From an uncultured Anaerolineales bacterium (GTDB lineage: Bacteria > Chloroflexota > Anaerolineae > UBA1429), in NCBI GenBank assembly GCA_964416075.1, contig CAYQDH010000002.1, positions 1-50,026 of the forward strand: DNA of 50,026 nucleotides, read 5' to 3'. Of the stretch, positions 8,950 to 50,026 are shown in pieces; positions within the stretch are counted from its first letter, which is position 1, and each line of letters opens with the position of its first letter. Under the pieces are notes generated by a model, which saw nothing but the letters and a program-made list of their open reading frames with translations, searched no databases and was not told the origin of the DNA. Made by a program: the position numbers and the translations under genes.

Positions 8950-9036
8950 AAACCTCCGACTCATCACGCTCCCTCGAGGACGAATGAGCGTTAGGTGCGG
9001 GGAGCAATCCCCACGCCCGCCGTTAGCAAAGGAGGT
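8950..9036 (+). promoter_or_regulatory. Candidate Moco/Tuco (molybdenum/tungsten cofactor) riboswitch aptamer
   Basis: 5' CCUCCGA (8953-8959) pairs with 3' AAAGGAGG (9028-9035) as P1. An internal helix is CUCAU (8960-8964) with AUGAG (8984-8988). A hairpin is GGUGCGGGG (8994-9002) with CCCCACGCC (9009-9017). CCUCCGA...AAAGGAG matches my recollection of the Moco-motif consensus. It lies directly upstream of a W/Mo-pterin enzyme gene. Confidence 0.5.
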
Positions 9037-9082
9037 GGCCTCGTTGTGCCGATTCTGGCGCACGAAGGTCACCTCCTTTTTT
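9029..9082 (+). terminator. Intrinsic terminator / expression platform of the AOR leader
   Basis: AAGGAGGUGGCC (9029-9040) pairs with GGUCACCUCCUU (9067-9078) and runs into a U6 tract (9077-9082), whose first two U form the base of the stem, then AUUU. The 5' arm reuses the GGAGG that closes the putative aptamer P1. Confidence 0.6.
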
Positions 9083-9118
9083 ATTTCGGAAATCGGTAGT
9101 CTGTACAGAGGAGGAAAC

Positions 9119-10972
9119 ATGCAAGGCTATACTGGGAAAATGTTGGTCGTCGATCTGGGGCTGAGAACATTCGAGTCGCGGGCCATCCCAGAAGCATGGC
9201 TCAAGGATTTCCTGGGTGGTGAGGGAGTGGCGATGCGCCTCTTCTACGAACTGGTGCACCCCGACGCCGATCCCTTGGACGCCGTTCAGCCGATGATCTT
9301 TGCTACCGGGCCGCTCACGGGGACGGCAGCGCCATGCAGCGGGCGCTGCTGCGTCGTCTTTTACTCCCCCGCGACCGGCACACTCGGCGCGGCCAATGCT
9401 GGTGGGCACTTTGCCCCAGCGCTCAAGAGGGCAGGTTGGGACCTCTTGGTCCTACTCGGCCAAGCCGATAAGCCCGTCTACCTGTATGTTAACGATGATA
9501 AGGTAGAGTTCCGTGACGCAGCGCGGCTGTGGGGCCAGGGGGTGGCCGAAGCCGAAGATGCCATCGTGGCGGAGCTGGACGTAAAGGGGCTGCAGGTGGC
9601 TTCTATCGGCCCGGCCGGTGAAAAGGGCGTCAAGTTCGCCTCCATCATGACCGACAAACACCGTGCCTTTGGACGCGGTGGACCCGGCGCAGCGATGGGC
9701 AGCAAGCTGCTGAAGGCGGTCGCTGTCAAGGGCACGTTGCCCCTGCCGACTGCGGATCCTAAGGCGCTCCGTGAAGCGGCGACCCATGCCCGTGAAGAGC
9801 TCTTTGCCGAGGCCTTTGTCCGCGATGAGTTGCACCCCTTTGGCACCCCTTCCTTCTACGATTCTATCAACACCCTCGGTATCCTGCCTACCAAGAATTG
9901 GCAAAGGACCGAGTTCCCCCAATCGGTCGGTAAGTTGACCTACCACGACTACCACGAGACGCTACAGGTCAAGCCCTATGCCTGCTTTGGCTGCCCTATC
10001 GCCTGCGGGCGGTCCACCACCATTATCGAGGGCAAGTATGCGGGAATGCATGGGGGTGGGCCGGAGTATGAGACCTTGGCCGCTTTTGGCAGCAAGTGCC
10101 TGGTCACCGACATCAACGCTATAGCTGCTGCCAACCACACGGCAAACAACCTGGGGCTGGACGTAATCTCTTCGGGACAGGTGATTGCCACTGCTATGGA
10201 GTGGTACGAACAGGGGATCTTGACCAAGGACCTCACCGGCGGCCTGGAGCTCACTTGGGGCAACGGAGACGCCGTGGTCGAAGCCGTCAAGCTGATCGGC
10301 AAGCGCGAAGGAGTCGGCGATCTACTGGCGCTGGGCGTCAAGAGGGCCGCGGAGAAACTGGGGCCCGCTGCCGGCTATGCGGCCATGCATGTCAAAGGGC
10401 TGGAAATGGCGGCCGATGGGGTGCGGGCCAGTAAGGGCGAAGCCGTCGTGCACGCCACTTCGGCCCGCGGCGCCGACCACTTGCGGCCCTACGCCTCCAC
10501 CATCGATGCCTTTGGCTATCGTGAACCCCAATTGGGCATCGTCCAAGACGTCGACTACCTGGAGGATGGCCACAAGTCGTGGGTCAAGCCGCTCCAGGAA
10601 CTGAGCATGGCTACCAACATGTTGGGCGTGTGCCTCTTTGCCTCGATCACCCTGGCCATCAAGCCCGCCACCTGGGCCCGGTTGGCCTCGGCGGCCGTCG
10701 GCTATCCCATCTCCCAGGGCGATCTGCTCCTCGCCGCCGAGCGGGTGATCAATCTGGAGCGCATGGTCAACGCGCGCCTTGGATTTGATCGCAAGGATGA
10801 CACCTTGCCCCGGCGCTTCCTGGAGGAACGGGCTCCCGACGGGCGCGGCGAGGGCGAGGTCGTCGACCTGGCAGTAGCACTGGATAGCTACTATGAGTCC
10901 ATGGGTTGGGACCCAAAGACTGGACTCCCCACACGTGAGAAGTTGGCCAGCCTGGGCCTGGATTGGCTCTAG
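9119..10972 (+). CDS. aor: Aldehyde:ferredoxin oxidoreductase family (tungsto-/molybdopterin enzyme)
   Basis: MQGYTGKMLVVDLGLRTFESRAIP...FLGGEGVAMRL is a typical AOR N-terminal domain. It has a 4Fe-4S motif ACFGCPIACGR and long AOR domains 2/3. ATG 9119 is preceded by GAGGAGG. The track ORF starts at 8984, inside the leader. Confidence 0.9.
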   Translation: MQGYTGKMLVVDLGLRTFESRAIPEAWLKDFLGGEGVAMRLFYELVHPDADPLDAVQPMIFATGPLTGTAAPCSGRCCVVFYSPATGTLGAANAGGHFAPALKRAGWDLLVLLGQADKPVYLYVNDDKVEFRDAARLWGQGVAEAEDAIVAELDVKGLQVASIGPAGEKGVKFASIMTDKHRAFGRGGPGAAMGSKLLKAVAVKGTLPLPTADPKALREAATHAREELFAEAFVRDELHPFGTPSFYDSINTLGILPTKNWQRTEFPQSVGKLTYHDYHETLQVKPYACFGCPIACGRSTTIIEGKYAGMHGGGPEYETLAAFGSKCLVTDINAIAAANHTANNLGLDVISSGQVIATAMEWYEQGILTKDLTGGLELTWGNGDAVVEAVKLIGKREGVGDLLALGVKRAAEKLGPAAGYAAMHVKGLEMAADGVRASKGEAVVHATSARGADHLRPYASTIDAFGYREPQLGIVQDVDYLEDGHKSWVKPLQELSMATNMLGVCLFASITLAIKPATWARLASAAVGYPISQGDLLLAAERVINLERMVNARLGFDRKDDTLPRRFLEERAPDGRGEGEVVDLAVALDSYYESMGWDPKTGLPTREKLASLGLDWL

Positions 10973-10979
10973 ATAACCA

Positions 10980-11016
10980 GGGGGTTCCGCGAGCCGGCAG
11001 CGCTCGCGGAACCCCC
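10980..11016 (+). terminator. GC-rich hairpin after aor (possible terminator, no U-tract)
   Basis: GGGGGTTCCGCGAGC (10980-10994) pairs with GCTCGCGGAACCCCC (11002-11016), a 15-bp perfect stem 8 nt after the stop codon. Confidence 0.4.
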
Positions 11017-25606: not shown

Positions 25607-26692
25607 CTATGCCTTGTCAAGCCCGATCTTGCTCAACTCCCTCAAGCCGGGCACGAGCTTCAGCGCGTTCTCATAGTATATCTTGCGCAACACCTCGGCC
25701 GGCAGGCCGAGGCCGTAAATGGGCCATCGATGCCTCCCAAAGGTTCCATCATAGTCGGGTGCGTAAAAGAACTCGTCGAACGTTTCCAAGAACCGGAAAT
25801 AACAGCGGTACATTTCCGGGGAGACCGGCATGTCGGTGCCAAAGATGATTCGGTCCTGATAGCGAATCATGAATTCGCGCGCGGCATAGGGCTGGCGACC
25901 CAGCTCGTCGAGGCGCGCCGAAAAATCGATGTAAGCATTGGGGTTTTCATCCAAGAGCCGACCGACGTAGCCCAGATCCTCGGGATAATTCGCCACGTGC
26001 GCCAGTATAAAGGTGGTGTTGCGGTGACGGCGAATGAGATTGTCGCGGCGCTGCATGAGCTCCGCTTTGCGCGGGAATTTGGGGTCGGCAAAGCTCCACG
26101 AAGGATACTTGCTCAGCGTCTCATAGTGCTCGTTCTCGGGTGTGATCGGATCGAAAAAGGCCGCCGGGTCCGACTGGTGGATGAGCACGGGGATGCCCAG
26201 CCTGCCAGGCTCTTCCCAGATGGGGGCCAGCCGAGGATCATCCACGGTGACCAGGTCCCCTTCACCGTCTCGGTAATGCAGCCCGAGTTCTTTGAGCACC
26301 TTCAGCCCACGGGCGCCGAGGGCCACGTGCCTGCGCAAAAGCGCGAGGGTCTCGGCCACGAATTGCCCTGCATCGCGGAATAGCGGCTCGTTTCCGGGCT
26401 GTGCCAAGGTGGCTGTGGTGAAACCGTAGAACCGTCCAGGGTGGCGCTCGACGCAGCTGGCGAGAAACCCCTCGAAACTGCCTTGGCTCACCATGTAGCC
26501 GCCCTCGACCCAGGCCAGCGACACGTTCGCCGTCAGGTCGCAGTAGCTTACGACGCCCACCTGATCCATCATGCCCACCATGCTGTCCACGCCAGCCCAG
26601 TTACCCCATAGATGGTTATGCGCATCGATGACCGGAAACGCCGCTCTCTCTGGAATATGTTCTTCGCGAACCAAATAGGATCTGGTCTTCAT
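25607..26692 (-). CDS. Amidohydrolase-2 family metal-dependent hydrolase (TIM barrel)
   Basis: The VIDAHNHLW metal-binding motif near the N-terminus, later IPVLIHQSD and ILAHVANYP, and FGTDMP near the C-terminus. Confidence 0.8.
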   Translation of the reverse strand: MKTRSYLVREEHIPERAAFPVIDAHNHLWGNWAGVDSMVGMMDQVGVVSYCDLTANVSLAWVEGGYMVSQGSFEGFLASCVERHPGRFYGFTTATLAQPGNEPLFRDAGQFVAETLALLRRHVALGARGLKVLKELGLHYRDGEGDLVTVDDPRLAPIWEEPGRLGIPVLIHQSDPAAFFDPITPENEHYETLSKYPSWSFADPKFPRKAELMQRRDNLIRRHRNTTFILAHVANYPEDLGYVGRLLDENPNAYIDFSARLDELGRQPYAAREFMIRYQDRIIFGTDMPVSPEMYRCYFRFLETFDEFFYAPDYDGTFGRHRWPIYGLGLPAEVLRKIYYENALKLVPGLRELSKIGLDKA

Positions 26693-26741: not shown

Positions 26742-26803
26742 CATGGGGTCGATGCGCCGCATGGGGTTCATGCGCCGCATGGGGTTCATGCGCCGCATGG
26801 GAC
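26742..26803. repeat. 18-bp tandem repeat (about 3.3 copies), each junction forming the palindrome ATGCGCCGCAT
   Basis: CATGGGGTCGATGCGCCG, CATGGGGTTCATGCGCCG, CATGGGGTTCATGCGCCG, then CATGGGAC.... It sits in the 270-bp divergent intergenic region between the amidohydrolase and heparinase-like genes. Confidence 0.9.
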
Positions 26804-33285: not shown

Positions 33286-34677
33286 ATGACGGAATTCTAC
33301 ATGGCCTCGACCTTTAGCCAACAGCGGATCTTGGGCTTGGCTCCTGATACCCAGGTCGCCCATGCCGCCCGGAGTTTGGCCCACCCCGGCAAGTGGCAGA
33401 ACCTCGGTCTGGATGAGGGAGTCGCCTGGGGAGAGTTCCAAGGCTCGGGCAACAAGCCCTACCAGGTAGCAGTAGGCCTGGAGGGGCCTGCCTTTAAATG
33501 CAATTGTCCCAGCCGCAAGCGCCCCTGCAAACACGCCCTCGCCCTATTCATGCTCGCTGCCTACCAGGATAGCGCCATCCCTGCAGGCGAACGCCCTGTG
33601 TGGGTTGCGCAGTGGTTGGCCGGGAGGGCCAGCGTCAGGGAGCAAGAGAAGCGCGAGCCCCTAGCGGCCCAAGATACTCCCAACGAGGCCCCCTCACTCC
33701 CGATCGAGCCGGTGCGTGCATCCAAGCGCGGGGCGCAGCGGGAAAAACGGGTTCGGGAAGGGACTGGAGCGCTGGCACACTGGATGGAGGACCTGGCCCG
33801 GCAGGGGCTGGGCAGTGCTCAGAGCCAGCCTCCGGCTTTTTGGGATGAACAGGCTGCCCGGCTTGTGGATGCCCAGGCGCCGGGGCTGGCGCGGAGGGTT
33901 CGCGAGTTATCGACGTTTGCCCATTCCGGAGAGGATTGGCCTGCCCGCCTCCTCGATCACTTGGGACGGCTGCACCTCCTGCTAGAAGCCTATGCTCGCC
34001 TCGATCGCTTGCCCCTCGAGCTGCGTGAAGAGATCCGCTCACAGATCGGCTGGACGCAGGACCAGAGCGCCCTGCGGGACCAGGCCGGAGAGCGAGACGA
34101 TTGGCTGGTCGTCGGGCAGCGTATTACCGAAGAGGAACGCTTGCGCGTGGCCCGTACATGGCTCTGGGGCGTGCGCTCTCAAGTCGGGGTATTCACCCTG
34201 GACTTTGCTCCCCCAGGCAGACCTATCGAGTGCGCAATGATCCCGGGCACCCATCTCGATGCGACCTTGGTCTTTTGGCCGGGGCCCGTGCGGCAGCGCG
34301 CGTTGGTCAAGGTGCAACACGCCATCTCGCCCATGCAGGCCTTGCCCGGTTACTGCAACTTGGAAGTAGCCCTGGCGACCTTTGGCGCTGCCCTGGCCGG
34401 CGTTCCCTGGCTCGACCGCTTTCTCATGCCCCTGGCCGACGTGATCCCGGTGCGCCAGGGAAGCAATTGGCTGGTCTGCGATGTGGATCATCACGCCCTA
34501 CCCCTGGCGGTGGGCGAGATGGATGGCTGGCGCCTGACAGCGCTGAGCGGGGGATCTCCCCTCACGTTGGCCGGTGAGTGGGACGGAGAGCACTTGTCTC
34601 CCCTCAGCGCCTGGACGGCTAACCAGCTGATCCTGCTCACGGGCGAGAGCCTGCCCGATGGCGGGGGGCAGCGATGA
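33286..34677 (+). CDS. SWIM zinc-finger domain protein
   Basis: The SWIM signature CxCx(n)CxH is seen as FKCNCPSRKRPCKHALALF near the N-terminus. 463 aa. The stop overlaps the next start as ATGA. Confidence 0.8.
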   Translation: MTEFYMASTFSQQRILGLAPDTQVAHAARSLAHPGKWQNLGLDEGVAWGEFQGSGNKPYQVAVGLEGPAFKCNCPSRKRPCKHALALFMLAAYQDSAIPAGERPVWVAQWLAGRASVREQEKREPLAAQDTPNEAPSLPIEPVRASKRGAQREKRVREGTGALAHWMEDLARQGLGSAQSQPPAFWDEQAARLVDAQAPGLARRVRELSTFAHSGEDWPARLLDHLGRLHLLLEAYARLDRLPLELREEIRSQIGWTQDQSALRDQAGERDDWLVVGQRITEEERLRVARTWLWGVRSQVGVFTLDFAPPGRPIECAMIPGTHLDATLVFWPGPVRQRALVKVQHAISPMQALPGYCNLEVALATFGAALAGVPWLDRFLMPLADVIPVRQGSNWLVCDVDHHALPLAVGEMDGWRLTALSGGSPLTLAGEWDGEHLSPLSAWTANQLILLTGESLPDGGGQR

Positions 34678-36299
34678 GTGCTTGGGACGACCTCGTCGCC
34701 GTGGCGCTGGTGGGCACGGGCCAGGCCAGACCGGCTTCCCCGTTATTCGCTGGAAAGACCCGCTTGGACTTGCTCCTGACCAAGTTGGAGGATCAGCCCG
34801 TGGAGCAGCGGACGCTGGCCGCGGCGTCCGTGTTTTCCACCTGGCGCCGAGCCGGTATGCAGCCCCTCGAGTTCTCGGCGACGCCGGCAAAGGCCCCTGC
34901 GGAGGATCGCTCGCCCTGCCCCGAGGCAGCCGCCGGGCACCTGGAGCGCATCCTCCGGGATGAGACGCTCATGCCCGTGCTGCCCCAATGGCTCGCCGCC
35001 CTGGCCGCGGCGGCGCACAACCTGCCCCATCGTTGGCTGCCCGAGATCCTGGACCTGGCTTGCCGCCAGAAAGACCTACGGCCCTTGGTGCGCAACGTCC
35101 TTGGCCCGCGTGGGACATGGTTGGCTTGGCAGCGAGAGAGTTGGGTCGCTCTGCTGCTCCCCACGACACGCGAGGCGATCACCGATCGCTGGCAGAACGG
35201 CATCCTGCCCGAGCGCGCCGAGCTCTTGCAGCACGTGCGCCAGACAGACCCGGCGCTGGGACTGGAACTGGTCAGCGCAACGTGGGGGCAGGAGTCGCCC
35301 CGCGAGCGTGAGGCCTTCCTCCAGGTCCTGAGCGCGGGCCTGAGCATGGCTGACGAACCCTTCTTGGAAACCGCCCTGGACGACCGGCGCAAGGATGTGC
35401 GGCTGGCCGCCGCAGAGCTGTTGGCCGCCCTGCCCGGCTCGCGCCTGTGCCGACGCATGCTGGACCGGCTGGCGCCTCTGCTCCATTTCACCCCCGGAGG
35501 GCAGTCCGGTCTGGCCCGGCTGGGGTTGGGACGCAAGCTTGCCGTGGAGGTGATCCTTCCCGGCGAGTGCGACAAGGCTATGCTTCGCGATGGCCTGGAC
35601 CCCCACGGCATCGAGGGACTGGGGCCGCGTCAGGGCTGCTTGGTCCAGATGCTCAGCATGGTGCCACCCGAGATGTGGTGCGTGCGTTGGGACGTCGACC
35701 CGCAACGGGCGCTGGCTGCTTTCGTCAAAACCGAGTGGGAAGAAACGTTTCTCACCGGCTGGGCATTTGCCGCCGCACGTTACCGCGATGCGGCCTGGGC
35801 CGACGCCGTGATCTCTGTCCTCCTGCACAAGGTCCCGCAGTGGCGCGAGCAACCGACTCTCCAGGCCGGCACCGCTGCCCAACGGGCCGTGAAGCTGCTC
35901 TATCTCCTGTGGCCGGTGCTCTCGCCGGCGCGCCTGGAGGCCCGGGCGTTGGAATCACTGGGCTCTCGCTTGCCCCTCCAGAACACCCACGTCGTGGTGT
36001 CGTTGCTGGGGCGGTGTCGCCATCCGTGGAGTGAAACGTTGGGCCGGGCGATGCTTCAAGCCCTGCAGAGGGTGGTGCGTGAAGGGGATTCCTCCTTCGA
36101 TACCACATGGCCCCTCCGCCAGGATTTGAAGGAATACGCCCTGTATATGCCGCCCTCATTGGCTGTGCAGTCCGCCGAGGGATGGGATCGGAGCGGGTCG
36201 ATGTGGAACACCTGGAGTAGCGCCGTAGAGCAGTTCCAGATTATCCTGCAATTCCGCCACGATATGCTGGCGGCATTGCCACCGGCCGCGCCTGCCTGA
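34674..36299 (+). CDS. HEAT-repeat-containing protein (DUF5691-like partner of the SWIM protein)
   Basis: 541 aa, helical and Leu/Ala-rich, with a HEAT/PBS-lyase-like repeat DDRRKDVRLAAAELLAALPGS. It is translationally coupled to the SWIM gene. The DUF5691 label is from my memory of similar actinobacterial clusters. Confidence 0.6.
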   Translation: MSAWDDLVAVALVGTGQARPASPLFAGKTRLDLLLTKLEDQPVEQRTLAAASVFSTWRRAGMQPLEFSATPAKAPAEDRSPCPEAAAGHLERILRDETLMPVLPQWLAALAAAAHNLPHRWLPEILDLACRQKDLRPLVRNVLGPRGTWLAWQRESWVALLLPTTREAITDRWQNGILPERAELLQHVRQTDPALGLELVSATWGQESPREREAFLQVLSAGLSMADEPFLETALDDRRKDVRLAAAELLAALPGSRLCRRMLDRLAPLLHFTPGGQSGLARLGLGRKLAVEVILPGECDKAMLRDGLDPHGIEGLGPRQGCLVQMLSMVPPEMWCVRWDVDPQRALAAFVKTEWEETFLTGWAFAAARYRDAAWADAVISVLLHKVPQWREQPTLQAGTAAQRAVKLLYLLWPVLSPARLEARALESLGSRLPLQNTHVVVSLLGRCRHPWSETLGRAMLQALQRVVREGDSSFDTTWPLRQDLKEYALYMPPSLAVQSAEGWDRSGSMWNTWSSAVEQFQIILQFRHDMLAALPPAAPA

Positions 36300-36322
36300 C
36301 CTGTCACGCCTGAGGCTCCGTC

Positions 36323-36409
36323 ATGGCGAGAAACCCACGGGCTGCCGCCCCTGCGGTCTCAGATGACGTCCCAAGTACCGCAAGTTGCCTAACTTGCGGA
36401 TCTTGGTAA
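36323..36409 (+). CDS. Candidate mini-ORF 1 (28 aa) MARNPRAAAPAVSDDVPSTASCLTCGSW
   Basis: A complete ATG...TAA within repeat unit 1, with GAGG about 7 nt upstream. Whether it is coding is unproven, because the hairpin could explain the conservation instead. Confidence 0.3.
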   Translation: MARNPRAAAPAVSDDVPSTASCLTCGSW

Positions 36410-36414
36410 ACGTC

Positions 36415-36501
36415 ATGGCGAGAAACCCACGGGCTGCCGCCCCTGCGATCTCAAATGACGTCCCAAGTACCGCAAGTTGCCTAACTTGCGGATCTTGGTA
36501 A
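36415..36501 (+). CDS. Candidate mini-ORF 2 (28 aa) MARNPRAAAPAISNDVPSTASCLTCGSW
   Basis: A complete ATG...TAA within unit 2. The ATG is 5 nt after the previous TAA. It differs from copy 1 by V12I and D14N. Confidence 0.3.
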   Translation: MARNPRAAAPAISNDVPSTASCLTCGSW

Positions 36502-36506
36502 ACGTC

Positions 36507-36593
36507 ATGGCGAGAAACCCACGGGCTGCCGCCCCTGCGGTCTCAGATGACGTCCCTCGTACCGCAAGTTGCCTAACTTGCGGATCTTGGTAA
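36507..36593 (+). CDS. Candidate mini-ORF 3 (28 aa) MARNPRAAAPAVSDDVPRTASCLTCGSW
   Basis: A complete ATG...TAA within unit 3. It differs from copy 1 by S18R plus one synonymous change. Confidence 0.3.
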   Translation: MARNPRAAAPAVSDDVPRTASCLTCGSW

Positions 36594-36653
36594 ACGTCAT
36601 GAGCAGGAGCGGGTTTCGCGACGACGCATTCTCAGTTCACTGAGGAGTATACT

Positions 36654-37736
36654 ATGCCGGATATCCTACGCCAACATGCCGAACAGCAATTCGCCGAGGA
36701 GTTGGACCACCTGGCTCGTGCGGATACCCGGCCGCGCCCGCCCAATTGGCGCCTTTCTCCTTGGGCGGTGGCCACCTATGTTTTGGGCGGCGAGTTGCCG
36801 GACGGCTACCACATCACGCCCAAATACGTCGGCAGCCGGCGCCTGGTGGAGATCGCCATCGCCACGTTGGCTACGGACCGGGCGCTCCTCTTGTTTGGGG
36901 TGCCGGGCACCGCCAAGACCTGGCTCTCCGAGCACCTGGCCGCCGCCATCGCCGGCGATTCGACGCTCGTCGTCCAGGGCACGGCGGGCACCAGCGAGGA
37001 TGCCATCCGCTACGGTTGGAATTACGCCCGGCTGCTGACCGACGGCCCCTCCGAAGCTGCCCTGGTGCCTAGCCCCGTCATGCGCGCCATGCTGGAGGGC
37101 AAGATCGCCCGCGTCGAGGAGCTGACGCGCATCCCTTCGGACGTGCAAGATGCCCTCATCACCATCCTCTCTGAGAAAACCCTGCCGGTGCCTGAGCTGA
37201 AATCGGAGGCCCAGGCCATCAAGGGGTTCAATGTCATCGCCACGGCCAACAACCGCGACCGGGGGGTCAACGAGCTATCCAGCGCCCTCAAGCGTCGCTT
37301 TAACACGGTGGTGCTGCCGCTCCCCGCCACAGCCGAGGAGGAGACGAGCATCGTGTTGACCCGGGTGGAGGCCCTGGGCCAGGTGCTGGAGCTGCCCGCC
37401 GAAAAGCCGCCCCTGGAGGAGGTGCGGCGCGTGGTAACTATCTTCCGCGAGCTGCGCGAGGGCGTAACCTCCGACGGTAAGACCAAGCTCAAGTCGCCGA
37501 CCAGCACCCTGAGCACCGCCGAGGCCATCTCCGTGGTCAATAGCGGCCTGGCCATGGCTGGGCATTTTGGCGACGGGTATATGCGGGCCTCCGACATGGC
37601 CCCCGGCATCACGGGGGCCGTCATCAAGGACCCGGTGCAGGACCGTGTCGTATGGCTGGAATACCTGGAGACGGTGCTCAAGGAGCGCAACGGCTGGAAG
37701 GATCTGTACCGCGCCTGCCGGGAAGCTGTTATGTGA
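36654..37736 (+). CDS. MoxR-like AAA+ ATPase (AAA_5 type)
   Basis: Walker A LLFGVPGTAKTW. The Walker-B-region is KIARVEELTRIPSDVQDALITILSEK, with EE where DE is usual. Sensor-1 VIATANN and an RRF arginine are present. RBS GAGGAG is 6 nt upstream. Confidence 0.85.
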   Translation: MPDILRQHAEQQFAEELDHLARADTRPRPPNWRLSPWAVATYVLGGELPDGYHITPKYVGSRRLVEIAIATLATDRALLLFGVPGTAKTWLSEHLAAAIAGDSTLVVQGTAGTSEDAIRYGWNYARLLTDGPSEAALVPSPVMRAMLEGKIARVEELTRIPSDVQDALITILSEKTLPVPELKSEAQAIKGFNVIATANNRDRGVNELSSALKRRFNTVVLPLPATAEEETSIVLTRVEALGQVLELPAEKPPLEEVRRVVTIFRELREGVTSDGKTKLKSPTSTLSTAEAISVVNSGLAMAGHFGDGYMRASDMAPGITGAVIKDPVQDRVVWLEYLETVLKERNGWKDLYRACREAVM

Positions 37737-37744
37737 GGTCCTAG

Positions 37745-40102
37745 ATGACTGTCCACGTCTTTGGCATCCGCCACCATGGTCCAGGTTCGGCACGTACCCT
37801 GCTGGCTGCGCTGGAGAGCCTGCGCCCCGATGCCATCCTCGTCGAGGGGCCACCTGAGGGGGAGGAGCTATTGGGCGCGGTGCTCCATCCCGACATGCAA
37901 CCCCCTGTAGCCCTGCTGGTCTATGTCCCTGATGAGCCGCGCCGAGCGGGCTTTTACCCCTATGCCCTGTTTTCGCCCGAGTGGCAAGCCATCCGCTATG
38001 GCCTGGAGCACGGCGTCCCGGTGCGGCTGATCGATCTGCCGCAGAAGCATTGGCTGGCCCTGCGCCAGGAAGAGGCGCAGGCTCCACCGGCGCCAAGCGC
38101 CTCGGCACCCAGTGCCGCGCCCGATGATGCCCCGACGCCGGCGCCCCCACCGCAGCCCGTGGACCCCTTGGATGCGTTGGCCCTGGCCGCGGGCTATGAG
38201 GATGGCGAGAACTGGTGGGAGCATCTCATCGAGGAGCGTCCCACCGGTGGGGAGAACCGGGCCGCCGCAGCCCTGGATGTCTTTGCGGCGGTCCAGGAGA
38301 TGATGGGTGCCCTGCGTTCCAGTGCGCCACTGGATGGGCAGAGCCCCGAGGCCGTGCAATCACTAATGAGGGACCCCTTACAGCCACTGCGCGAGGCGGC
38401 GATGCGCCGGTCGATCCGTATCGCCGAGCAGGCCGGGTACCAGCGGATCGCCGTGGTGTGCGGGGCCTGGCACGTGCCGGCCCTCGTCTCTACAGCGCCT
38501 GGAGACGACGACCTGTTGGCAGGCTTGCCCGAGGTCCCGGTCAAGCTCACCTGGGTGGCCTGGAGTTACGAGCACCTGTCGCGTTTCAGCGGTTACGGTG
38601 CGGGGGCCATCTCGCCCGCCTGGTACGAGCACTTGTGGCGCACGGCGCCATCGGGCCATGTCGCCGTGCTCTGGCTGACGCGCGTTGCCCAGTTGTTGCG
38701 CCAAGAGGACCTGGACGCCTCGGCGGCCCAGGTCATCGATGCCGCCCGCTTGGCCGATGCCCTGGCCGGCGTGCGCGGGCGCTCCCGCCCGGGTTTGGCG
38801 GAGCTGCGCGACGCGTGCCTGGCCGTCTTTTGCTTTGGCAATCCCGCGCCCATGCGCCTGATCTCACACCAGTTGATCATCGGCGACCGCCTGGGCCAGG
38901 TGCCGGCGGGGCTGCCGATGGTGCCGCTCTACCAGGACCTCGTGGCGACCGAGGGCCGGCTGCGTTTCCCGCGCCAGATGAGCGCCAAGCAACACGATCT
39001 CGACCTTCGCCAGCCGAATGATCTCGCACGCAGCCGGCTGCTCCACCGCCTGCTCGCCCTGGATGTGCCATGGGGCAAGCTTGAGGCCGCCAGGCATGGT
39101 GTCAAAGGTACATTTCACGAAGTGTGGACCCTGCAATGGCAGCCGGAATTCACCATCCGGGTGATCGAGCGGGCCATCTGGGGCAACACCATAGCCCAGG
39201 CCGCCAACACGTATCTCGTGCACCAGGGTGAGACGGCCCCGGAATTGGCCGCCCTCATGGAATTGCTGGACTGTGCGCTCCTGGCTGACCTGCCTGCGGC
39301 GGCGGCTCATCTCATCGCCCTGTTCCAGGCTCGTTCGGCCCTATCGGGCGACGTCGGGCGCTTGATGGACGCCTTTCCCCCTTTGGCCCGGGCGTTACGC
39401 TATGGCACCGTGCGGCAGAGTGCCGCTCTGGTGGGGGGAGGAGAGATGGCTGCCCTTGGCCCCAGCGCCATCGCCCCCATCCTCAACGGCTTGGGGGCGC
39501 GCATCTGCATTGGGCTCCCCATAGCCTGTGCCTCTTTGGACGATGACGCCGCGCAGCAGATGTTGCAGCGCATCGAGGCGGTGCAGAGCGGCCTAGCGGT
39601 GGTAGACCTGCCGGAGCTAACGGCAAGCTGGCAGGCCACATGCCGACAGTTGGTCGACCAAGGAGGCTTGCATGGGCTGCTCGCCGGCCGCTGCTGCCGG
39701 TTGTTGCTCGATCAGCGCCTTCTGAGCGCGGAGGAGGTTGCCCGCCGCTTGAGCCTGGCCTTGTCGCGCGGCAACGACCCGGCCCAGGGCGCAGCCTGGT
39801 TGGAGGGCCTGCTCCGTGGCAGCGGCCTGCTGCTCATCCACCAGGGTGGGCTGTGGAGCGTCCTGGATCAGTGGCTCGCGGGATTGGCCCCCGAGGCTTT
39901 TGTCGCCGTGCTGCCCTTGCTGCGCCGCACCTTTTCCGCCTTTCCGGCTCCCGAGCGCCGCCAGATGGGCGAGCGCGTGCGCCGAGGGCCGGCGCACATG
40001 GTGCTCGGCGACCGGGATACGAATATCGACACGCACCGTGCAGATGCCACTCTGCCGCTGCTGGCCCGCTTGCTGGGCCTACAAGAGGATGGCTCACCAT
40101 GA
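37745..40102 (+). CDS. Large DUF5682-like protein (785 aa) with TraB/TIKI/ChaN-like N-terminal pattern
   Basis: N-terminus VHVFGIRHHGPGSARTLLAALESLRPDAILVEGPPE, then a Pro/Ala-rich linker (QAPPAPSASAPSAAPDDAPTPAPPPQPVDP), then a long helical region. The stop overlaps the next start (ATGA). The DUF5682 label is from memory. Confidence 0.65.
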   Translation: MTVHVFGIRHHGPGSARTLLAALESLRPDAILVEGPPEGEELLGAVLHPDMQPPVALLVYVPDEPRRAGFYPYALFSPEWQAIRYGLEHGVPVRLIDLPQKHWLALRQEEAQAPPAPSASAPSAAPDDAPTPAPPPQPVDPLDALALAAGYEDGENWWEHLIEERPTGGENRAAAALDVFAAVQEMMGALRSSAPLDGQSPEAVQSLMRDPLQPLREAAMRRSIRIAEQAGYQRIAVVCGAWHVPALVSTAPGDDDLLAGLPEVPVKLTWVAWSYEHLSRFSGYGAGAISPAWYEHLWRTAPSGHVAVLWLTRVAQLLRQEDLDASAAQVIDAARLADALAGVRGRSRPGLAELRDACLAVFCFGNPAPMRLISHQLIIGDRLGQVPAGLPMVPLYQDLVATEGRLRFPRQMSAKQHDLDLRQPNDLARSRLLHRLLALDVPWGKLEAARHGVKGTFHEVWTLQWQPEFTIRVIERAIWGNTIAQAANTYLVHQGETAPELAALMELLDCALLADLPAAAAHLIALFQARSALSGDVGRLMDAFPPLARALRYGTVRQSAALVGGGEMAALGPSAIAPILNGLGARICIGLPIACASLDDDAAQQMLQRIEAVQSGLAVVDLPELTASWQATCRQLVDQGGLHGLLAGRCCRLLLDQRLLSAEEVARRLSLALSRGNDPAQGAAWLEGLLRGSGLLLIHQGGLWSVLDQWLAGLAPEAFVAVLPLLRRTFSAFPAPERRQMGERVRRGPAHMVLGDRDTNIDTHRADATLPLLARLLGLQEDGSP

Positions 40103-41268
40103 GCGATACGTTGCAGCCCAGCACCGTCCCTGGGGAGGACGAGCGTCTGCGTCGCTGGCGGCTTGTCCTGGGTGGCGGCGATGCCGACAGCATCGCTCTC
40201 CCCCTCGATGATCTGGATCTGGGGATGGATCGCACGCTGAGCGCCCTCTATGACTCGGAGCGCAGGGGAGGGCTCGGCGCATCGGCCCCACACGTGGCGC
40301 GCTGGCTGGGGGATATCCGCACCTATTTTCCCTCCTCCGTCGTCCGCATCTTGCAGCGCGATGCCATGGAGCGACTAGGGCTTCGGCAGATGCTCGCCCA
40401 GCCCGAGCTGCTGGCCTCCATCGAGCCGGACATCCACCTGGTGGCCTCGTTGGTGATGCTCAAGGACGTCCTGCCGGCCAGAACCAGGGACACGGCCCGC
40501 CAGGTGATTCGCCAGGTGGTGGAAGAGGTCGAGCGGCGGCTGGCCCAGCCGCTGCGCCAGGCCGTGCAGTCGAGCCTGGACCGCGCGGCCCGCACCCGCC
40601 GCCCGCGCCACCACGAGATCGACTGGCAGCGCACCATCCGCGCCAACCTAAAGCACTATCAGCGCCGCTACCGCACCATCATCCCCGTTCAACGCATAGG
40701 CTTTGCCCGCAAAGGGACGGGCCTGCGAGACATTATCGTCTGCATCGATCAAAGTGGCTCGATGGCTGCTTCAGTGGTCTATGCTGGTATCTTGAGTTCT
40801 GTGCTGGCCTCGCTGCGGGCCATCCATACGCGCGTCGTCGCTTTCGATACCTCAGTGGTGGACCTCAGCGATCTGCTTTCCGATCCCGTCGAGCTGCTCT
40901 TTGGCACCCAGCTGGGTGGCGGAACCGATATCGACCAGGCCCTGGCCTATTGCCAATCCCTGATCCGGAGCCCCCACGATACCATCCTCGTACTGCTCAG
41001 CGACCTGTACGAGGGGGGCGACCAGGGCGCCATGGTGGGCCGCATCAGAACGATGGTCGATATGGGTGTGCAGGTCATAGCCTTGTTGGCGCTGAACGAC
41101 CGGGGTGCGCCCTCCTACAACCATCCCCTGGCGAGCGCCCTGTCGAGCATGGGTGTCCCGGCCTTTGGGTGTACGCCCGACCAATTCCCCGACTTGATCG
41201 CGGCGGCTATCCAGCGCCAGGACCTCACGGTCTGGGCCACAAGCAGCGGCATCGCACCCGCAAGGTGA
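40099..41268 (+). CDS. von Willebrand factor A domain protein (CoxE-like), complete MIDAS
   Basis: From MSDTLQPST. MIDAS residues are DQSGSM (DxSxS), GGGTDI and LLSDLYEGG. The track ORF (39640..) is an artefactual 5' extension over the preceding gene. Confidence 0.85.
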   Translation: MSDTLQPSTVPGEDERLRRWRLVLGGGDADSIALPLDDLDLGMDRTLSALYDSERRGGLGASAPHVARWLGDIRTYFPSSVVRILQRDAMERLGLRQMLAQPELLASIEPDIHLVASLVMLKDVLPARTRDTARQVIRQVVEEVERRLAQPLRQAVQSSLDRAARTRRPRHHEIDWQRTIRANLKHYQRRYRTIIPVQRIGFARKGTGLRDIIVCIDQSGSMAASVVYAGILSSVLASLRAIHTRVVAFDTSVVDLSDLLSDPVELLFGTQLGGGTDIDQALAYCQSLIRSPHDTILVLLSDLYEGGDQGAMVGRIRTMVDMGVQVIALLALNDRGAPSYNHPLASALSSMGVPAFGCTPDQFPDLIAAAIQRQDLTVWATSSGIAPAR

Positions 41269-42693: not shown

Positions 42694-42738
42694 CTTAAGC
42701 CAGGGCTGGCGCCACCGTGGCGCCAGCCCTGGCTTAAG
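42694..42738. terminator. Perfect 20-bp-stem hairpin between convergent genes (bidirectional terminator candidate)
   Basis: CTTAAGCCAGGGCTGGCGCC, loop accgt, GGCGCCAGCCCTGGCTTAAG. No U-tract on either side. Confidence 0.55.
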
Positions 42739-44788: not shown

Positions 44789-44975
44789 GACTGATTCGCC
44801 GCCGTTACCGTTCTCCTTTCCAAGGATGGGGGGCGTGACTGTTTCCGGCCACACCTTCTTGACGGTCCACAAGACCGCCAGCGATCACAGGCCCTAGCCA
44901 TCGCTGGACATCGTCACACCAACGAGCGCGTTAGGCTATGTGATTCGGAGAACAAGATATCCTGTTGTGAACGAA
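44789..44975 (-). promoter_or_regulatory. Riboswitch-like leader (multi-helix element plus antiterminator) upstream of ecfT
   Basis: On the minus strand GGUGUGAC (44920-44913) pairs with GUCACGCC (44839-44832). That helix encloses the CCAGCGAU/AUCGCUGG hairpin (44907-44900 with 44885-44878) and GACGAUGUCC/GGACCGUC. CCCCAUCC (44831-44824) is complementary to GGAUGGGG (44771-44764) in the terminator. I recognise no known riboswitch class. Confidence 0.45.
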
Positions 44976-49025: not shown

Positions 49026-50026
49026 CTATCCCAACCGTCCGATGCGCGCCAGCCCGTCGGCCACATCACCCATCCCCAGCGCCTCCAGGCTCGCGCGGGT
49101 CGGGTACCCGTTGCTGGGACTCCAGCCGCGCATCTCGTAATAGCGGTCCAGCATCGGACTAAAGCGCTCCAGGTCGAGCACCACGCCATCGCTAAGGGCG
49201 GGTTCGGTCATCGTCTGGGCCGCGGACCAATCCACGGTGCGGTTGCGGTCGTGGTTGCGCACATCGACAGCCCGTAGTTGGTTAAAGATGCGCGAGCCTG
49301 CCTCCGTGAGCGTGGCTAAATCGGTCTCCTGGCCCGTGCAGGCCGAATAGAGCTTGGCCATCATCTCCGTATCCGCCGCGCGATCCTCGCTCTCCATGCT
49401 AAAGATGCGTGGCTGTTCATAGTCGCACAGCGTCAGCGATTCTAATAGCATCCCCCAGTTGTGATGCAGGATGGCCGGGATCACCTTCGTATCCGGCTTG
49501 TCGTATGTGTACGCGGGGTTATACACATCCGGCTCCCCATACACTCGCTCGCAGATGGCCCGCGCCTGTTCGGCGGTCACCGGCCCGCGGTTCGGACCGT
49601 GCTCTGGCAGGTAACTGAGCAGATGGGTCGTATAGGCGTGGGTTGAATCGCTGGCCGGATCGCGCGTATCCACGCAGAACTGCAGCACGGGCACCAGCCA
49701 AAAAGGAAAGTAGGGCCGTCCGCCCGTGCCCCAGTGGGCATTCCAATGGTTTGTCTGCCCAAAGCGCCGGGGGTAGATCCGGTCGAGGAGTGGCGCTCCC
49801 GCACCGCCAAAGAGGCGCTCCGCGGCATAGCAAGCGCCATCGGCCAGCGCGTCGCCCAACTCCCCCTCTCTCAGCGCTATCGTGCGCACCATGTTGATCG
49901 TGAACTCCGGCGACTGTCGCGGCACATCCTCCAGATAGTGGATCTCCTTATCCGGCACGGGGATGGGGATGCCGTCGATCGTATCGATCAGGCCATGTTG
50001 CTTGCACATCATCAGCCAGGGGATGA
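49026..50026 (-). CDS. Second aldehyde:ferredoxin oxidoreductase family gene (C-terminal two thirds; N-terminus beyond window)
   Basis: The frame is open to the window end (…IPWLMMCKQHGL…). The AOR domain 2/3 pattern runs to ...YYEMRGWSPSNGYPTRASLEALG, mirroring the end of the first AOR (YYESMGWDPKTGLPTREKLASLG). Confidence 0.85.
   Translation of the reverse strand, partial: IPWLMMCKQHGLIDTIDGIPIPVPDKEIHYLEDVPRQSPEFTINMVRTIALREGELGDALADGACYAAERLFGGAGAPLLDRIYPRRFGQTNHWNAHWGTGGRPYFPFWLVPVLQFCVDTRDPASDSTHAYTTHLLSYLPEHGPNRGPVTAEQARAICERVYGEPDVYNPAYTYDKPDTKVIPAILHHNWGMLLESLTLCDYEQPRIFSMESEDRAADTEMMAKLYSACTGQETDLATLTEAGSRIFNQLRAVDVRNHDRNRTVDWSAAQTMTEPALSDGVVLDLERFSPMLDRYYEMRGWSPSNGYPTRASLEALGMGDVADGLARIGRLG

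Follow-up and report, generated by a model that had tools for sequence, protein, structure and literature searches.

The closest described counterparts of the element treated here, a tandem array of 92-nt units within an operon of an uncultured Anaerolineales bacterium (Chloroflexota; assembly GCA_964416075.1, contig CAYQDH010000002.1, positions 1 to 50,026, here called the window), are GTAG-type repetitive extragenic palindromic (REP) elements. Di Nocera, De Gregorio and Rocco (2013; PMC3733652) compiled a catalogue of these elements, which have stems of 5-13 bp, loops of 2-20 nt and a terminal GTAG-like tag that may be degenerate, the degeneracy being stated for tag positions 2-3 and not explicitly for position 4. 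Dimers and clusters are frequent, a head-to-tail arrangement is rare, and the catalogued clusters include the bacterial interspersed mosaic elements (BIME), SMAG and GTAG-23 of Thermomicrobium/Roseiflexus; in Chloroflexi the elements were found mostly clustered at few loci (PMC3733652). The same paper mentions, as a known effect, that REP elements influence the stability of mRNA. Systems of REP doublets forming hairpins (REPINs) and REP-associated tyrosine transposases (RAYTs) were described by Nunvar et al. (2010; PMC2817692) and Bertels and Rainey (2011; PMC3116915).

A DUF5691 gene precedes the array and the gene of a MoxR-type AAA+ ATPase follows it. An original prediction made from the sequence alone left three readings side by side, namely tandem small peptide genes, a structured RNA setting the expression ratio of the two operon halves, and an insertion resembling REPs or miniature inverted-repeat transposable elements (MITEs). 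The last of these was found to be the best supported, as the array is absent from the orthologous operons and a GTA-tagged palindrome family is multi-copy and intergenic elsewhere. The array is probably a lineage-specific, REP-like (BIME-like) cluster of selfish DNA that was inserted into the DUF5691/AAA+ spacer and amplified head-to-tail to three copies. That the open reading frames (ORFs) embedded in it are a by-product of the repeat and not genes is held with much higher confidence than the REP-like assignment.

A lineage-specific insertion in the DUF5691/AAA+ spacer

Tandem Repeats Finder reported one array with a period of 92, 3.1 copies, 96% matches and a score of 538, which together with the raw sequence confirms the exact three-copy tandem repeat that had been described (coordinates of all features are given in Table 1). 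It is laid out as CGTCATG-(85 nt)-CGTCATG-(85)-CGTCATG-(85)-CGTCATG, i.e., the junction motif is present once more than the unit. Exactly four substitutions separate the copies, corresponding to a unit-to-unit divergence of 2-4%. As the units are contiguous and, apart from these substitutions, identical throughout, with direct repeats and no unique spacers between them, a CRISPR array is ruled out, in line with the earlier judgement.

Orthologous operons were gathered via the AAA+ protein, and the same order of five genes was seen in L062, L064 and L069-L071. The spacer between the DUF5691 and AAA+ genes measures 354 nt in the window, 68 nt in L062 (AAA+ identity 97%), 78 nt in L063 (92%), 13 nt in L064 (83%), 12 nt in L072 (83%), 0 nt in L073 (84%) and -4 nt in L069-L071 (82%), where the genes overlap. 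Collinearity between L062 and the window extends over 33783-36330 (86.9% nucleotide identity) and 36622-41268 (90.9%) and continues into the next gene; in between, L062 has 5 nt against the window's 291 nt at 36331-36621 (blastn and alignment). Absence from all orthologous operons had been named with the original prediction as a refuting outcome, and the unit is indeed absent from all operons retrieved, including the collinear L062. The array of about 276 nt is a lineage-specific insertion relative to every one of them. At both of its ends stands the 7-mer CGTCATG, found once at the ancestral site (the empty site of L062 reads GTCATTG), and the ribosome-binding site (RBS) and the gene of the downstream AAA+ protein are intact. 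The flanks differ from L062 by 9-13% and the units from each other by the 2-4% given above; the amplification is therefore inferred to be recent and probably long postdates the divergence from the closest relative known.

The 59 nt that follow the third unit (36595-36653) had been taken for a fourth, degenerate unit. Its reading as MSRSGFRDDAFSVH was confirmed, but the tail is not a decayed copy of the unit: its similarity to the L062 spacer is significant (p<0.0005), what it has in common with the repeat unit is limited to CGTCATG and TCTCAG, and no similarity to the unit is left once these ends are removed (p=0.85). The tail is ancestral spacer. The reverse proposal, in which the first half of the unit would be a copy of the ancestral spacer, was rejected, as this similarity likewise disappeared once the shared ends were removed. 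In the tail itself a hairpin UCUCAG-UUCA-CUGAGG (36632-36647) overlaps the first bases of the Shine-Dalgarno sequence GAGGAG of the AAA+ gene; L062 differs there.

The site carried a palindromic repeat before the array arrived. The spacer of L062 contains the 23-mer ATTGTGAGCGAAGCGAAGCAATC, for which 118 matching stretches were found in the viral-contig collection alone (L074 onward), where it is usually one arm of a hairpin of about 86 nt, CGTCATTGCGAG...CTCGCAATGACG. This belongs to a widespread, CGTCAT-headed long palindromic repeat, CGTCATTGCGAGCGAAGCGAAGCAATCCAG...CTGGATTGCTTCG...CTCGCAATGACG (in L062 at 2537-2566), which looks like a member of the CGTC-tagged REP superfamily (PMC3733652) and is a candidate REP dimer. 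The window tail is a decayed copy of this repeat and the counterpart in L062 is an exact 23-nt copy. The array units resemble it in beginning with CGTCATG and closing with ATGACG, and the typical element of about 86 nt is close to the 92-nt unit in length. The interiors, however, are unrelated and only the 6-7-nt head is common to both; membership of the first half of the unit (hairpin A, below) in the widespread CGTCATTGCGAG... repeat is unsupported, as the family profile misses it in nhmmer (E>1).

Two hairpins in every unit

One unit is predicted to fold as two adjacent hairpins with -41.6 kcal/mol (z = -5.3), and both strands of the array fold well. Hairpin B, at unit positions 53-88, is a 5+9-bp stem-loop of the form CCAAG-TA-CCGCAAGTT-GCCT-AACTTGCGG-AT-CTTGG, in which GTA stands directly 5' of the 9-bp stem; this stem is perfect and its loop has 4 nt in all three units. 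The 5+9-bp hairpin that had been described for each unit and the uncompensated changes of the third copy were both reproduced by folding. Hairpin A, at unit positions 1-50, is an imperfect stem closed by CGUCAU/AUGACG with the loop UGCC. The pair ACGTCAT/ATGACGT noted earlier is therefore present, while the description of one hairpin per unit is wrong, as the pair closes this second, imperfect hairpin over positions 1-50. In an alternative pairing ACGTCAT/ATGACGT adds to hairpin B instead, giving a stem of 7+5+9 bp (-29.4 kcal/mol, z = -7.3). The inner 37 nt of hairpin A alone show no significant structure (z = -1.5).

Within the window the hairpin is confined to the array. CCGCAAGTT-GCCT-AACTTGCGG has exactly three exact occurrences, with a match in 0 of 100 shuffles, and the 22-nt core CCGCAAGTTGCCTAACTTGCGG is found at 36378, 36470 and 36562 with no further site even when 3 mismatches are allowed.

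In unit 2 the change at position 38 disrupts a C-G pair in hairpin A and the one at position 44 falls on an unpaired base, and the double change of unit 3 lies in the outer stem of hairpin B and weakens the fold of this unit to -36.0 kcal/mol. Predicted pairs are lost through three of the four substitutions, with no compensation in any case, and the array accordingly shows no sign of selection on a peptide or on the outer RNA structure.

Relatives of hairpin B in other genomes

In 185,579 species-representative genomes, which were scanned with the pattern CCGCAAGTT-N4-AACTTGCGG, 61 loci were found, nearly all of them single terminator-like hairpins with unrelated loops and flanks. The exception is L051, a metagenome-assembled genome (MAG) of the Acidobacteriota, with two intergenic clusters among housekeeping genes that hold at least 10 palindromes in both orientations, either GTAG-CGCAAGTT-GCCT-AACTTGCG or GTAC-CGCAAGTT-..., and that include inverted doublets and a 163-nt unit in 2.8 tandem copies. 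Two L051 copies are identical to hairpin B of the window over the 26 nt GTACCGCAAGTTGCCTAACTTGCGGA; this identity reaches 8 nt past the part enforced by the pattern, for which about 0.002 occurrences are expected by chance over the 61 loci. No RAYT was found between the two clusters, where the genes are housekeeping genes according to Pfam. At L051 170-757 the arms of a REP-like hairpin, TTCCGTACCGCAAGTTGCCT and AGGCAACTTGCGGTACGGAA, are 100% complementary and are split by a 548-nt insert, which has imperfect 50-nt terminal inverted repeats of its own and looks like another small mobile element targeting the palindrome.

A metagenome scan with a 24-mer added three more contigs (L065-L067), so that contigs from soil and sludge carry the core; in L067 a second, diverged hairpin stands inverted 33 nt away. 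In a scan of viral contigs two copies were found on the virus-like contig L068 (1391-1416 and 2141-2166). These read GTAC-CGCAAGTT-GCC(T/A)-AACTTGCG and each immediately precedes a purine-rich RBS of the opposite strand, which hints at a regulatory or processing role there. When 16 family members were compared the 5' GTA was invariant, and compensatory changes on both sides of the stem (G-C>T-A, T-A>C-G and C-G>G-C) were seen at three positions among L051, L067, L068 and the window.

Origin of the array

Several features are shared with the GTAG-tagged REPs. Hairpin B has a perfect 9-bp stem and a 4-nt loop, both within the range of REP stems and loops. One end of it bears the family's conserved unpaired GTA, followed by G or C, which may correspond to the GTAG tag; its relatives are multi-copy, intergenic, present in both orientations, clustered and marked by compensatory stem changes. 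The array lies between co-directional genes, and clusters of such REPs arise from the tandem reiteration of a REP together with flanking DNA. Differences are that multi-copy behaviour is seen only in L051, L067 and L068, the array consisting of three adjacent copies in 50 kb, and that its unit bears a second, unrelated imperfect hairpin. With the REPIN/RAYT systems the array shares the character of a non-autonomous palindromic element, and its relatives in L051 and L067 form inverted hairpin doublets. In contrast, the hairpins of the window are direct repeats, no RAYT was seen among the window ORFs scanned, and REPIN-RAYT systems are described as vertically inherited in lineages, whereas the core of hairpin B spans contigs labelled as different phyla. 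The array also departs from the BIME pattern, as the three copies of hairpin B have the same orientation at 92-nt spacing and do not alternate; only the 7-nt CGTCAT/ATGACG alternates.

Several observations weigh against the interpretation as a REP-like cluster. The tag of the array is GTAC and its C is paired as the ninth base pair of the stem, while the relatives carry GTAG or GTAC, and the arrangement is strictly head-to-tail. No further family member was found in the 50-kb window with 4 mismatches allowed, so that there are just the three adjacent copies, and in the Chloroflexota genomes of the scan the hairpin B stem occurs only as an ordinary terminator. The full 92-nt unit had no match in GTDB genomes, JGI metagenomes, viral contigs, plasmids or called proteins, the genomes and metagenomes having been scanned by the hairpin B core; a BLASTN search of the array against 72,556 plasmids likewise gave no match. 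The hairpin A half had no match in viral contigs and was found nowhere else. The link to the family in the Acidobacteriota consists of 26 nt. No transposase, RAYT or Y1_Tnp domain was detected among the window ORFs scanned with Pfam (a subset) or among the L051 ORFs scanned. What the array might do for its host, at most a modulation of mRNA stability, is suggested by analogy. RAYT genes are single-copy per genome and their absence from 50 kb says little.

If the array is a REP-like cluster, transposition may have brought in the unit, or it may have been captured through microhomology-mediated recombination, with the CGTCATG head of the pre-existing palindromic repeat as the site. This head would supply the homology or the target for integration and for later multiplication, which may have proceeded by unequal recombination or slippage between CGTCATG copies. 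The array is probably transcribed within the operon mRNA, because the flanking genes point in the same direction and in relatives overlap or stand almost end to end, and would then appear there as six stable hairpins. These could be neutral; their likeliest effect, if there is one, is that proposed for REPs (PMC3733652), as a barrier to 3'-5' exonucleases or a partial attenuator, by which the balance between upstream and downstream cistrons would change.

Among the other explanations, a one-off local tandem duplication, by slippage or unequal recombination, of a sequence outside any mobile or dispersed family is unlikely; in this case the 26-nt match would reflect convergence on a stable hairpin. 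The confinement of the unit to this window locus, with no occurrence in any database searched, agrees with such an event, and the microhomology at the CGTCATG junctions is a suitable substrate for slippage. It leaves unexplained, however, where the first 85 nt came from, as the interior of the unit is dissimilar to the ancestral spacer, and the 26-nt identity takes in the unpaired GTA tag and the loop, which are not conserved by hairpin stability alone.

Somewhat less probable still is a selected cis-acting RNA element, in which the three sets of hairpins would have been retained for fixing how strongly the two operon halves are expressed relative to each other or how they are processed, or as a platform for protein binding. 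The array does belong to the sense strand of an operon, a very stable structure is predicted for it, the downstream RBS has been kept and an influence on mRNA stability is mentioned for REP elements in the catalogue cited above. But the operons of the nearest relatives do without it, and a search against Rfam at permissive thresholds over 36000-36900 gave only sub-threshold, chance miRNA-like hits (the best with 25 bits against a gathering score of 80). Consensus scans of the array found no sigma-70-like promoter and no intrinsic-terminator-like site, and the pair-breaking substitutions described above also argue against maintenance of the structure. The earlier proposal of a structured RNA that sets the expression ratio could hold only as a side effect of the insertion.

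A more far-reaching scenario has a low probability. It posits a horizontally mobile two-hairpin element whose GTA-tagged core is common to Chloroflexota, the Acidobacteriota MAG and the virus-like contig, which would have travelled between phyla, perhaps on phages, would target the CGTCAT heads of palindromic repeats already in place and multiply head-to-tail, and would have been co-opted as an RNA barrier, tunable by copy number, that uncouples the SWIM–DUF5691 half of the operon from the MoxR–DUF5682–VWA half.

It is quite improbable that the array is a MITE mobilized by a DDE transposase, with CGTCATG as a 7-bp target-site duplication and amplification via recombination between the duplicated target copies. 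Like MITEs and repeats of the Correia/ERIC (enterobacterial repetitive intergenic consensus) type that are co-transcribed in operons, it is a small, non-coding, structured intergenic insertion in an operon that is flanked by a short direct repeat, and the repeated CGTCATG-(85 nt)-CGTCATG layout next to the single GTCAT(T)G at the empty site of L062 agrees with this reading. However, neither the array nor its 85-nt segment has terminal inverted repeats, and no transposase family was seen in the subset of window ORFs scanned. Moreover, CGTCAT is also the stem of hairpin A and the head of the pre-existing repeat, so that the direct repeat need not be a target duplication.

Coding potential of the embedded ORFs

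Every unit contains a 28-codon mini-ORF from ATG to TAA that encodes MARNPRAAAPAVSDDVPSTASCLTCGSW. Examination of the sequence and six-frame translation confirmed the details given for these ORFs, namely an ATG and a TAA in each unit, 5 nt from each TAA to the next ATG and a GAGG 7 nt upstream of the first ATG, which is the only copy so equipped. The comparison of copies likewise bore out that three of the four substitutions are non-synonymous (V12I, D14N and S18R) and that one, at Pro17, is silent. The original prediction had considered tandem small peptide genes. In this reading there would be three genes for a 28-residue CxxC peptide, serving the downstream MoxR/DUF5682/VWA machinery as precursor or substrate. 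The in-frame start and stop codons, the GAGG of the first copy, the CxxC motif and a TAA-ATG spacing that could permit re-initiation are in its favour.

The codon usage is, however, non-coding in character. The mini-ORF has a codon adaptation index (CAI) of 0.35 and a G+C content at third codon positions (GC3) of 0.46, compared with a CAI of 0.60-0.76 and a GC3 of 0.74-0.85 in 11 genes of the window; its CAI lies below that of all 167 in-frame 28-codon windows of real genes (minimum 0.41) and is typical of off-frame sequence (median 0.40). A Shine-Dalgarno sequence is lacking before copies 2 and 3, and the AUG of the mini-ORF falls within the hairpin A stem. The opposite strand of every unit offers an equally good ORF of 31 codons. 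Neither the 28-codon nor the 31-codon ORF peptide matched Pfam, and a concatenate of the open segments of the unit in six frames, compared with 5.8 billion protein clusters, yielded none at E<=10 among 260 word-sharing candidates. With a 3:1 ratio of non-synonymous to synonymous substitutions and no room for a 28-codon gene in the spacers of the orthologous operons, tandem peptide genes are not supported and are very improbable.

Genomic context

The host operon comprises five genes (Table 1), and the closest homologues of its AAA+ protein are named Chloroflexota or Anaerolineae. PADLOC assigned none of the five operon proteins to a defence system, no equivalog was found for them in NCBIfam and no informative match among PDB sequences, and a literature search on DUF5691 and DUF5682 found no paper mentioning either. 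In two distant Chloroflexota relatives the operon is directly followed by a gene for a 725-aa eCIS_core (PF13699) protein (L069 14492-16669 and L070 7644-9821), a neighbour that may have a bearing on the function of the five-gene operon.

Table 1. Positions of the repeat array, its parts and the surrounding operon in the window.
Feature	Position	Strand	Remarks
Tandem array	36319..36601	+	three full 92-nt units, followed by the 7-nt junction motif CGTCATG for the fourth time
Unit 1	36319..36410	+	reference copy
Unit 2	36411..36502	+	G>A at unit positions 38 and 44
Unit 3	36503..36594	+	AA>TC at unit positions 55-56, hairpin B outer stem
Hairpin A, unit 1	36319..36368	+	imperfect stem-loop, RNA fold
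Hairpin A, units 2 and 3	36411-36460, 36503-36552	+	
Hairpin B, unit 1	36371..36406	+	REP-like palindrome
Hairpin B, units 2 and 3	36463-36498, 36555-36590	+	
28-codon mini-ORF, unit 1	36323..36409	+	six-frame translation
28-codon mini-ORF, units 2 and 3	36415-36501, 36507-36593	+	
Ancestral spacer, left part	36300..36318	+	conserved with L062 (alignment, blastn)
Ancestral spacer remnant	36595..36653	+	earlier taken for a fourth unit; includes the AAA+ gene RBS GAGGAG, 36642-36647
Host operon SWIM–DUF5691–AAA_5–DUF5682–VWA_CoxE	33286..41268	+	Pfam
SWIM gene	33286-34677	+	Pfam
DUF5691 gene, 5' of the array	34674..36299	+	Pfam PF18944, E = 3.5e-125
MoxR-type AAA+ ATPase gene (AAA_5), 3' of the array	36654..37736	+	Pfam PF07728, E = 8.4e-38
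DUF5682 gene	37745-40102	+	Pfam
VWA_CoxE gene	40099-41268	+	Pfam

Further structured or repeated features were recorded elsewhere in the window. A molybdenum/tungsten cofactor (Moco) riboswitch on the minus strand (44797-44962; 50.2 bits, gathering score 36) lies upstream of minus-strand membrane and ABC-type genes, and the window contains two genes for aldehyde:ferredoxin oxidoreductase (AFOR; 8984-10972 and 49026-50012). The 18-nt tandem repeat CATGGGGTTCATGCGCCG (26742-26801; 3.3 copies, 95% identity) is situated in an intergenic region whose flanking genes diverge, an unannotated minus-strand ORF (25607-26692) on one side and a heparinase II/III-like gene on the other. Perfect palindromes directly follow the stop codons of a GFO_IDH_MocA gene (42694-42738, 21-bp stem) and of an AFOR gene (10980-11016, 15-bp stem); they have no T-tract and are unrelated in sequence to the 92-nt repeat.

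Implications

The main value of the analysis is a correction, in that apparent tandem micro-peptide genes in an uncharacterized MoxR/VWA operon become a recent insertion of selfish DNA; the array should neither be annotated as genes nor steer ideas on the function of the operon. The DUF5691/AAA+ spacer of this clade repeatedly hosts palindromic repeats, and a family of GTA-tagged palindromes is documented in poorly sampled soil phyla. The array also provides a natural insertion with which the effect of six intercistronic hairpins on the expression of the two operon halves can be tested.

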